Assembly (NCBI RefSeq): GCF_003790525.1
Contig: NZ_CP033632.1
Length of the DNA: 64,000 bases
Reading direction: 5' to 3' (one strand)
Origin: Escherichia coli
Lineage (GTDB): Bacteria > Pseudomonadota > Gammaproteobacteria > Enterobacterales > Enterobacteriaceae
Shown: positions 43,515 to 43,932 of the stretch, one piece after another
How the letters are laid out: the number at the start of each line of letters is the position of its first letter
Numbering within the stretch: the stretch's first letter is position 1
Program-made: the position numbers and the translations under genes
Notes under the pieces: model-generated
Databases searched by the model: none
What the model was told of the DNA's origin: nothing
The model's input: the letters and a program-made list of their open reading frames with translations, nothing else

Positions 43515-43932
43515 ATTAAGGGTTATTGAATATGATCAATTTACCTGTAAATCCATACAGTTCAATACCTTGGCAGGTCAAATAGTGATCACTTGATCAT
43601 TTGATCAAGGTTGCGCTACGTAAAATCTGTGAAAAATTGGCGGTGTTAGTCCTACAGATTTCGCGTAGCGCACTTAGCACCACCAATCAATCAGAGGTGA
43701 AAAATGGGATATTCAACTGCTAAAGTGTCCACTCATCTTGAGCTTGAGAAAAACCGTGGTTACTGGCGGGCAAAAGGGTTTGATCGTGATAGTTGCCAAC
43801 TGTCATTATCGCGCGGTGAAGAAAAAATAGAACGCACGCGCGGTCGCTGGCGTTTCTATGACGAGAACCATAAACAGGTAAAGGCAGAGCCGATCCTGTA
43901 CACTTTACTTAAAACCATTATCTGAGTGTTAA

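Follow-up and report, generated by a model that had tools for sequence, protein, structure and literature searches.

The stretch of DNA analyzed here, 64,000 nucleotides long and referred to as the window, is that of a P1-type plasmid prophage, and its positions 43515-43932 correspond to the leader of the P1 cre operon, a regulatory region that is already known. Its sequence has 99.4% identity to P1 (AF234172 1..503), with three substitutions in 443 bp, and is matched by P1 and its relatives at 97-99% identity (megablast). A position x in AF234172 corresponds to window position x + 43497. The locus is composed of the following features:

43479..43512, unstranded: loxP (13-8-13), sequence ATAACTTCGTATAGCATACATTATACGAAGTTAT, annotated as lox in X03453 and AF234172, its arms also recovered as a repeat
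43534..43537, unstranded: Dam site 1 of the cre regulatory region (P1 37..40, offset +43497)
43538..43565, minus strand: promoter P2coi (AF234172 41..68)
43543-43562: LexA box of P2coi, with the core CTGTAAATCCATACAG at 43545-43560 (AF234172 46..65)
43587..43606, unstranded: cluster of three GATC sites at 43587, 43595 and 43603, spaced by 8 bp, the last two being the annotated Dam sites 2 and 3
43601..43626, plus strand: promoter P3cre (pR1), -35 TTGATC at 43601-43606 and -10 TAAAAT at 43621-43626 (AF234172 104..129; X03453 155..180)
43612..43672, unstranded: 61-nt inverted repeat, arms 43612-43630 and 43654-43672, loop 43631-43653 containing GGCGGTG (repeat search and folding)
43683..43699, plus strand: leader motif CCAATCAATCAG followed by the Shine-Dalgarno sequence GAGGTG (ribosome-binding site annotated in X03453)
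43704..43925, plus strand: cra (ORF1), 73 residues, ATG start (AF234172 CDS 207..428; phrog_804)
43780..43809, plus strand: promoter P2cre (pR2), inside cra, -35 TTGATC, which contains a GATC, and -10 CATTAT (AF234172 283..312)
43897..43921, plus strand: promoter P1cre (pR3), inside the 3' end of cra, -35 TGTACA and -10 ATTAT (AF234172 400..424)
43933..44964, plus strand: cre, 343 residues (AF234172 annotation and megablast)

The comparison with the P1 reference annotation that had been proposed in the initial annotation of this DNA shows that ORF, promoters, and Dam sites all have annotations in the P1 records AF234172 and X03453. AF234172 carries the promoters P3cre (pR1), P2cre (pR2), and P1cre (pR3), three Dam methylation sites of the cre control region, the divergent promoter P2coi, and the LexA box; X03453, a record of 1986, already contains ORF1 (amino acids 1-73, potential), its ribosome-binding site, and pR1-pR3. 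The P1 cre control region (X03453; AF234172/NC_005856) and the window share the ORF, the ribosome-binding site, the promoters, the Dam sites, the LexA box, and P2coi, and differ in an extra GATC at 43587 that is found only in the window. The inverted repeat is a feature in neither P1 record. In 1986, Sternberg et al. reportedly described the P1 cre regulatory region with ORF1/cra, pR1-pR3, and the Dam sites; Sternberg et al. are the source given for this region in a later P1 study (PMC10695390). It is practically certain that the ORF, promoters, and Dam sites are these P1 features, and neither cra nor the Dam-site cluster is new, both being correctly annotated in existing records. Taken as a whole, the region is very probably best explained as the known cre leader, with cra and its Dam sites, that also holds a conserved hairpin without terminator function.

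The three GATC sites of the cluster fall within 20 bp. With a cluster defined as 3 or more sites within 25 bp, the window contains 7 clusters, compared with 1.5 ± 1.3 expected from random placement of 320 sites. The cluster had been noted previously and is present, but the string quoted for it starts at 43585, not at 43588. Reference P1 has GACC at 43587, one of the three substitutions, such that the P1 cluster comprises two sites and that of the window three. The hexamer TTGATC is found at 43601-43606 and at 43593-43598, as in P1, and its GATC overlaps the annotated -35 element of pR1. Dam control of the cre promoters, which had been put forward in the initial annotation, is established: AF234172 has Dam sites 2 and 3 annotated in the cre control region, overlapping the P3cre -35 element, and methylation-dependent activity of the region is known from the title of an article cited in PMC10695390. 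The four divergent P1-like sequences that were read, and Pantoea too, have two or three GATC sites just before the hairpin, and the LexA box is kept in the divergent P1-like sequences read. The pR1 sequence is the same in the window and in P1, with a spacer of only 14 nt between its hexamers; the consensus scan detects no canonical sigma-70 promoter at pR1, a result that fits this atypical spacer. The hexamers of pR2 show no conservation outside the P1 clade. The pR3 -35 element, TGTACA, lies in codons for Leu-Tyr-Thr and is invariant in all clades even at third codon positions, which suggests that it is under double constraint.

The 73-residue ORF is named cra, and its product is designated "putative cre associated function" in AF234172. 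Cra of the window is the same as P1 Cra at the protein level (AAQ13977/CAA27177), another of the three substitutions being a synonymous change in the gene, and matches phrog_804 with E = 1e-34. The ribosome-binding site, GAGGTG/AGGTGA, is located at 43694-43700, and the stop codon at 43923-43925 is separated by 7 nt from the ATG of cre at 43933; the coordinates, the good ribosome-binding site, and the short gap before cre are all as first described. The initial annotation also raised the idea of an overlooked small protein, whereas the ORF is present as ORF1 in X03453 (1986) and as cra in the P1 reference and many other records, and cra is named on the loxP map of PMC2409434. There is thus no reason to treat it further as a gene that had been missed. 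In a CRISPRi screen of P1 (PMC10695390, Table 2), cra was non-essential, with an EOP of 0.66, and it is dispensable for plaque formation. The frameshifted or truncated copies of cra in many natural P1-like elements fit this dispensability.

Judging from its pattern of substitution, cra is nonetheless evidently a genuine protein-coding gene under purifying selection. Homologues with 59-100% identity occur only in P1-like elements, those of Escherichia, Salmonella, Klebsiella, and Cronobacter. Codon comparison between the P1 clade and three divergent sequences (L125, of the Salmonella type; L053; and L128, of the Klebsiella type) gives 30-38 synonymous and 14-45 nonsynonymous differences between clades (~48 and ~165 sites, respectively), a dN/dS of 0.04-0.28 with dS saturated, and a third-position wobble pattern over the full length of cra in the codon alignment. 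The conservation at the amino acid level about which the initial annotation had asked is thus observed, with synonymous changes strongly favored, and its suggestion that the ORF may be non-coding is contradicted by the same dN/dS values and by the wobble along the whole ORF. It is scarcely credible that the ORF is untranslated and owes its conservation only to the embedded cre promoters. Such a reading would accommodate the location of pR2 and pR3 inside the ORF, the invariance of the pR3 -35 element at the DNA level, the abundance of frameshifted copies in natural P1-like elements, and the non-essential nature of the ORF. However, the low dN/dS and the wobble extend beyond the promoter hexamers, pR2 is lost outside the P1 clade while the Cra protein is kept, homologues at 32-39% identity are found in unrelated contexts, and the ORF has a good ribosome-binding site as well as, in relatives, a start that overlaps orf356 by ATGA (translational coupling).

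These distant homologues, obtained from a profile search of 1.8 billion representatives, are small proteins of 65-79 residues that share with Cra the motif ELEKxxGYWRAKGF...R.D..I....W. In one case (L142), the Cra homologue is followed after 9 nt by the gene for a 347-residue tyrosine recombinase, the same synteny as in cra-cre; others adjoin umuDC-like genes or sit in a large phage. No significant match to Cra was found among Pfam, NCBIfam, or PDB sequences. Two AlphaFold models of Cra have pLDDT values of 69 and 65 and disagree at their N-termini, and a Foldseek comparison of the predicted fold with the PDB gave no match (best E 0.63).

The inverted repeat between the Dam sites and cra is real, and its coordinates had been given correctly to within 1-3 nt. 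Its arms, of 19 nt each, are 89% complementary and enclose a 23-nt loop. As RNA the hairpin has a minimum free energy of -30.2 kcal/mol (z = -4.4), with 0/200 shuffles folding as well, and as DNA it has z scores of -2.7 to -2.8 on either strand. It is single-copy within the 64-kb window. Searches of Rfam with the hairpin returned only chance-level matches to miRNA models (18.8 bits versus a threshold of 56.7), and the hairpins of 10 related loci matched no Rfam family. The arms presumably bear partial likeness to DnaA boxes and to CRP, FNR, IHF, SlmA, and KOPS sequences, to attC R'/R'', the inverted-repeat ends of the Tn3 family, and R6K iterons, and to sigma-32, sigma-E, and sigma-54 promoters, likenesses that are not relied on here.

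The hairpin is not a terminator. The stem base is G+C-rich and the fold is stable, as an intrinsic terminator or an attenuator ahead of cre would need, but this function, which the initial annotation had proposed to assay in a reporter construct, is highly improbable: the scan of 43300-44100 found 0 terminator-like sites, the stem is not followed by a T/U run on either strand, its loop measures 23 nt, and T-runs are also absent after other members of the repeat family described below. In addition, the -10 element of pR1 (43621-43626) lies within the left arm. A transcript from pR1 would therefore start in the loop and contain the right arm only, and this predicted transcript has no significant structure (z -1.15).

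The hairpin is one member of a large and apparently undescribed family of 61-nt inverted repeats, whose arms read roughly GCGCTACG-YR-AAATCTG. Both arms of the element in the window have 0 mismatches to TGCGCTACGNNAAATCTG, and the span from CTACG to CGTAG is 53 nt. In a census of this span, with 31 gap lengths allowed, the 53-nt value was found for 62/78 unique metagenome matches (79%) and for 5/5 viral matches, and 52-54 nt for 70/78 of the metagenome matches. The distance from arm to arm is 42 bp, or four helical turns. Three of four divergent P1-like sequences retain the arms and the 61-nt size, with loops that diverge or flip; the Klebsiella-type sequence L128 has degenerate arms and a 52-nt span. 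Among 62 non-redundant copies, the outer three stem positions, which lie outside the fixed core, pair in 41, 34, and 26 copies, compared with 29.3 ± 3.0, 24.4 ± 3.5, and 16.3 ± 3.3 in shuffles, and gene conversion of one arm by the other could account for part of this covariation. Changes in the YR dinucleotide are transitions and do not covary (Watson-Crick pairs 34 and 26 versus 31.6 and 24.3 in shuffles). A run of G4 or C4 is present at the dyad center in 25/81 non-redundant copies, compared with 7.9 ± 2.7 for shuffled loops; the dyad center in P1 is GGCGGTG. A search of the accessible literature for the arm and repeat-end sequences returned no relevant paper, and an earlier mention, for example in the P1 papers of 1986 or 2004, is possible. 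The family membership of the hairpin and the association with recombinase genes described below are new observations.

Members of the family are widespread. In a blastn search of plasmids, the hairpin alone (~73 bp) matches hundreds of large Klebsiella IncHI1B/IncFIB plasmids and also a Pseudomonas putida plasmid. The Klebsiella matches are intergenic, with no annotated feature beneath, and are near psiA in the loci read; they are located far from the Cre-like gene of these plasmids (46 kb in NZ_AP026410, for example), and Pfam and PHROG assign the genes next to the hairpin only to families of unknown function. IncX4 plasmids contain a copy between hns and the dqlB/AgrB toxin locus, an IncFIB plasmid has one 5' of a small ORF and a tyrosine recombinase gene, and assorted phage contigs carry others. 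At least 120 genome contigs, mostly of Gammaproteobacteria, have copies of the family, compared with a rough estimate of ~13-26 expected by chance; the genera among the matches listed include Pseudomonas, Alteromonas, Pantoea, Yersinia, Hafnia, and Aeromonas. In Pseudomonas, the hairpin forms the center of a ~170-bp unit that is MITE-like, present in multiple copies, and bounded by terminal inverted repeats. This unit, the IncX4 copies, and the Klebsiella IncHI1B/IncFIB copies near psiA have no recombinase gene nearby.

Other members lie beside genes for tyrosine recombinases. Among 124 genome matches listed, 22 have such a gene within 1.5 kb of the hairpin, and in 19 of the 124 the 5' end of the recombinase gene faces the hairpin at a distance of 27-340 nt. 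The hairpin of Alteromonas has a Cre-like neighbor (22% identity along its full length, E = 1e-12), and a lox-like 14-6-14 site and a LexA-like box are found between the hairpin and this gene. Pantoea plasmids have a lox-like 13-8-13 site, three GATC sites, and the hairpin, with a Cre-like gene 34 nt downstream. In the reverse direction, eight relatives of Cre (26-42% identity) from a tblastn search of plasmids were inspected. An Acinetobacter plasmid (Cre relative of 42%) has the full hairpin 30 nt before the gene, and three E. coli/Citrobacter plasmids (~42%) have the right arm only, together with a leader homologous to that of P1 cra; no hairpin is present at the four of the eight relatives that have 30% identity or less. 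The presence of the right arm alone at some Cre-like genes indicates that the complete repeat is not required there.

Divergent P1-like plasmids contain an extended version of the operon, in the order lox, LexA box, two GATC sites, hairpin, CCAATCAATCAG, orf68, orf356, cra, and cre, with orf356 overlapping cra by ATGA. L053 is devoid of orf68, and P1 lacks both orf68 and orf356. For these two ORFs, Pfam and PHROG searches gave only PHROGs of unknown function. The leader composed of CCAATCAATCAG and the Shine-Dalgarno sequence is conserved 5' of the first gene of the operon in the P1-like clades, with a second copy before orf356, and a homologous leader also precedes the Cre-like genes of IncFIB plasmids.

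From these patterns in sequence, it is tentatively proposed that the hairpin may be a DNA-level element that conditions transcription into cra-cre. It would be part of an old leader module common to Cre-family recombinase genes, in which a lox-like site, a LexA box and/or GATC sites, the inverted repeat, a ribosome-binding site, and the first gene would follow one another. The element would act independently of orientation, either recognized by a protein or forming a cruciform, and its overlap with the pR1 -10 element would limit or condition transcription into cra-cre. A role in DNA is suggested because the loop motif can point toward the downstream gene or away from it, because G.U pairs are not in excess of A.C mismatches on the sense strand (27 versus 20), because the arm spacing equals four helical turns, and because the LexA-like box of Alteromonas, with an inferred promoter, is located between the hairpin and the gene; the G4/C4 run at the dyad is also counted for the DNA rather than the RNA level. 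On the other side of the balance are the occurrence of the family where no recombinase is nearby and the leaders that have only the right arm. The 14-nt spacer of pR1 is also unusual, and if TTGGCA (43570-43575) were read as a promoter element, the hairpin would lie inside the transcript.

The main rival to the DNA-level role takes up this last point, and has the hairpin as a stem-loop in the 5'-UTR of a cra-cre transcript that starts upstream, where it would set mRNA stability, RNase III processing, or translation of the first gene. This explanation is doubtful. It draws on the atypical spacing (14 nt) between the annotated pR1 hexamers and on the homologous TTGACA/TTGGCA -35 sequences: TTGGCA, together with a GATC-containing -10 element, would give a possible upstream start, and IncFIB relatives have a good TTGACA, homologous to it, ~90 nt 5' of the retained right arm. 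If the hairpin is included in the transcript, the RNA fold is strong in three P1 clades (-44, -39, and -38 kcal/mol; z -4.2, -2.8, and -2.6), and the hairpin precedes the start codon of the first gene by 27-40 nt in P1, Pantoea, and Acinetobacter. An RNA element is harder to reconcile with a loop motif whose orientation to the gene is reversed in several lineages, with the balance between G.U and A.C mismatches (27 versus 20), and with Alteromonas, where the position of the LexA-like box and, by inference, of the promoter after the hairpin would leave the hairpin outside the transcript. The loop length is strict despite unrelated loop sequences, which is unusual for a simple stem-loop, and the transcript from the annotated pR1 would have only the right arm (z -1.15). 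It is unlikely that the hairpin is a single-strand DNA signal, such as a Frpo-like promoter or priming site, or a selfish palindrome without a role in cre expression. Family copies do reside in plasmid regions near psiA, each arm has a -10-like YRAAAT that is mismatched at its first two bases, the Pseudomonas unit is MITE-like and multi-copy with the hairpin at its center, and one arm has been lost in some Cre-like leaders. Yet the 19-bp stem is too short to hold both a -35 and a -10 element in duplex, the hairpin is single-copy in the window, P1 and Pantoea have in common both its place 5' of recombinase genes and the accompanying GATC cluster, and so strict a geometry speaks for selection. 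P1 DNA enters in double-stranded form and is not transferred single-stranded, which also counts against a single-strand signal. Distinctly unlikely is an accessory DNA site at which a host protein would bias Cre-lox recombination in vivo toward multimer resolution. In its favor, P1, Pantoea, Acinetobacter, and Alteromonas all have the hairpin no more than 100-200 bp from a lox-like core site, and its arms are four helical turns (42 bp) apart. The in vivo bias of Cre-lox toward resolution is noted as an open question in PMC2409434, in which a 601-bp loxP fragment was recombined by purified Cre with or without PepA/ArgR, the only host factors tried on it, and no topological selectivity was observed. 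That loxP-601 fragment extends 236 bp toward cre and contains the hairpin, yet the products were the same with or without PepA/ArgR; many members of the family have no recombinase gene close to them, and P1 and Alteromonas have the hairpin on different sides of the core site.

On the most far-reaching reading, the hairpin is possibly an undescribed cis element of fixed geometry, recognized by a conserved gammaproteobacterial host factor, with which Cre-family recombination modules would control recombinase expression or the bias toward resolution beside their lox-like sites, a suggestion that is offered with reserve. The geometry in question is that of two inverted arms of 17-19 bp placed 42 bp apart, often with G4/C4 at the dyad. 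For the Dam sites and the ORF, which are textbook P1 features, nothing changes, and the hairpin family is a modest new lead. Cre-lox is among the most used recombination tools, and its natural regulation, including why Cre mostly resolves multimers in vivo and how cre expression stays low, is poorly understood. A conserved, fixed-size element beside lox-like sites in distant Cre-family systems provides a concrete and cheap target for experiments, and the family is also spread over resistance and virulence plasmids, including IncX4 mcr-1 plasmids and Klebsiella IncHI1B/IncFIB plasmids.

Several known systems resemble the hairpin in part. Similar to the hairpin, the accessory sequences of the Xer sites cer and psi, which are used with PepA and ArgR, are non-core DNA no more than ~100-200 bp from a recombination core site; they have no sequence relation to it. 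Single-stranded DNA promoters of the Frpo/ssi type were reportedly described by Masai and Arai in 1997 from plasmid leading regions. As compared by architecture, Frpo/ssi promoters (PMC11541004) share with the hairpin a mismatched -10-like hexamer, and the Klebsiella copies are near psiA, but the stem of a Frpo/ssi promoter holds both the -35 and the -10 elements and that of the hairpin is far too short to do so. A Frpo-type promoter was considered as a candidate for the P1 element and rejected on stem length, only the -10-like hexamer being in the stem and the annotated -35 element outside. The Pseudomonas multi-copy unit with its terminal inverted repeats is reminiscent of REP/REPIN and MITE-type repeats. 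The family differs from these in that the P1 and plasmid copies are single, the 53-nt core geometry is fixed, and the arms are conserved across orders; moreover, REPs are G+C-rich and the hairpin family is not. The Cre-family leaders of Pantoea, Acinetobacter, IncFIB E. coli/Citrobacter plasmids, and Alteromonas have the same components in the same order as that of P1, namely, a lox-like site, a LexA-like box and/or GATC sites, the repeat, a ribosome-binding site, and the first gene. Most of these leaders are without cra, some contain the right arm only, and that of Alteromonas, unlike P1, has its lox-like site between the hairpin and the gene. The layout in the Pantoea plasmids corresponds to the P1 architecture minus cra.

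The 73-residue gene cra (window 43704-43925, + strand), directly upstream of cre, is named "creatininase" in the NCBI annotation of many P1-like plasmids. This identity is ruled out, as a protein of 73 aa is too short to be that enzyme and as Cra has no match among the NCBIfam and Pfam models; the label has probably spread from the gene symbol cra. In many natural P1-like elements, cra is frameshifted, truncated, or internally deleted (protein clusters P0043, P0045, P0016, P0019, P0034, and P0042), and a 41-aa form of Cra occurs in 115 contigs. The abundance of damaged copies suggests that cra is often dispensable. 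In divergent P1-like plasmids, two additional genes, orf68 (phrog_19934) and orf356 (phrog_7674), are located between the hairpin and cra:

L125 (Salmonella-type) 1688-3004, orf68/orf356 region
L128 (Klebsiella-type) 1697-3004, orf68/orf356 region

In these plasmids, orf356 and cra overlap by ATGA, and a second copy of the leader motif CCAATCAATCA lies ahead of orf356.

Copies of the hairpin, the 61-nt inverted repeat between loxP and cra, also occur in other replicons. In Pseudomonas genomes (L250, L195, L198-L202, and L217-L221), the hairpin occupies the middle of a multi-copy, MITE-like unit of ~170 bp with the terminal inverted repeats GAGTGTGTAAAAACG / CGTTTTTACACAG. In Klebsiella plasmids (L003 3900-4200 and homologues), the hairpin is flanked by the small conserved palindromes GAATAATAACGATTATTC and AAAAGTTACTTTT, as visualized in an alignment of five homologous plasmid loci from four Klebsiella species. 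AAAAGTTACTTTT recurs downstream, and ~90 nt downstream of the hairpin the same strand holds a stem that resembles a terminator and has a T-run behind it. The Klebsiella hairpin locus could be a small transcription unit. In IncX4 plasmids, the gene for the type I toxin dqlB is adjoined by an AgrB antisense RNA, which lies ~200 nt from the hairpin copy in L136:

L136 3203-3291, AgrB antisense RNA (Rfam RF02891, 58.7 bits)

The LexA box adjoining loxP (window 43545-43560) is annotated for P2coi only. LexA-like boxes (CTG-N10-CAG) are also observed beside Cre-like genes in plasmids that lack coi (L235, L169, L224, L254, and L263-L266), and in IncFIB plasmids the LexA-like box immediately adjoins a TTGACA -35 element that points toward the recombinase gene. 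SOS control may be general among Cre-family recombinases.

Elsewhere in the window, an 820-bp transposase-encoding element is present in six copies:

Window 871-1691; 3636-4456; 10532-11352; 16559-17379; 23792-24612; 27109-27929, 820-bp element

We take its transposase to be that of IS26; this makes the window a P1-like plasmid with a large IS26-bounded insertion region.

At pR1, the Dam-regulated cre promoter, a third GATC is found at window 43587-43590, where the sequence is GTGATCAC here versus GTGACCAC in reference P1; among viral contigs, the commonest P1-like variants also carry a GATC at the matching position. The window contains further dense GATC clusters:

Window 4730-4766; 5055-5078; 9454-9468; 39420-39442 and 39550-39604; 60055-60075, GATC clusters

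The pair of clusters near 39.4-39.6 kb resembles the pac site of P1.
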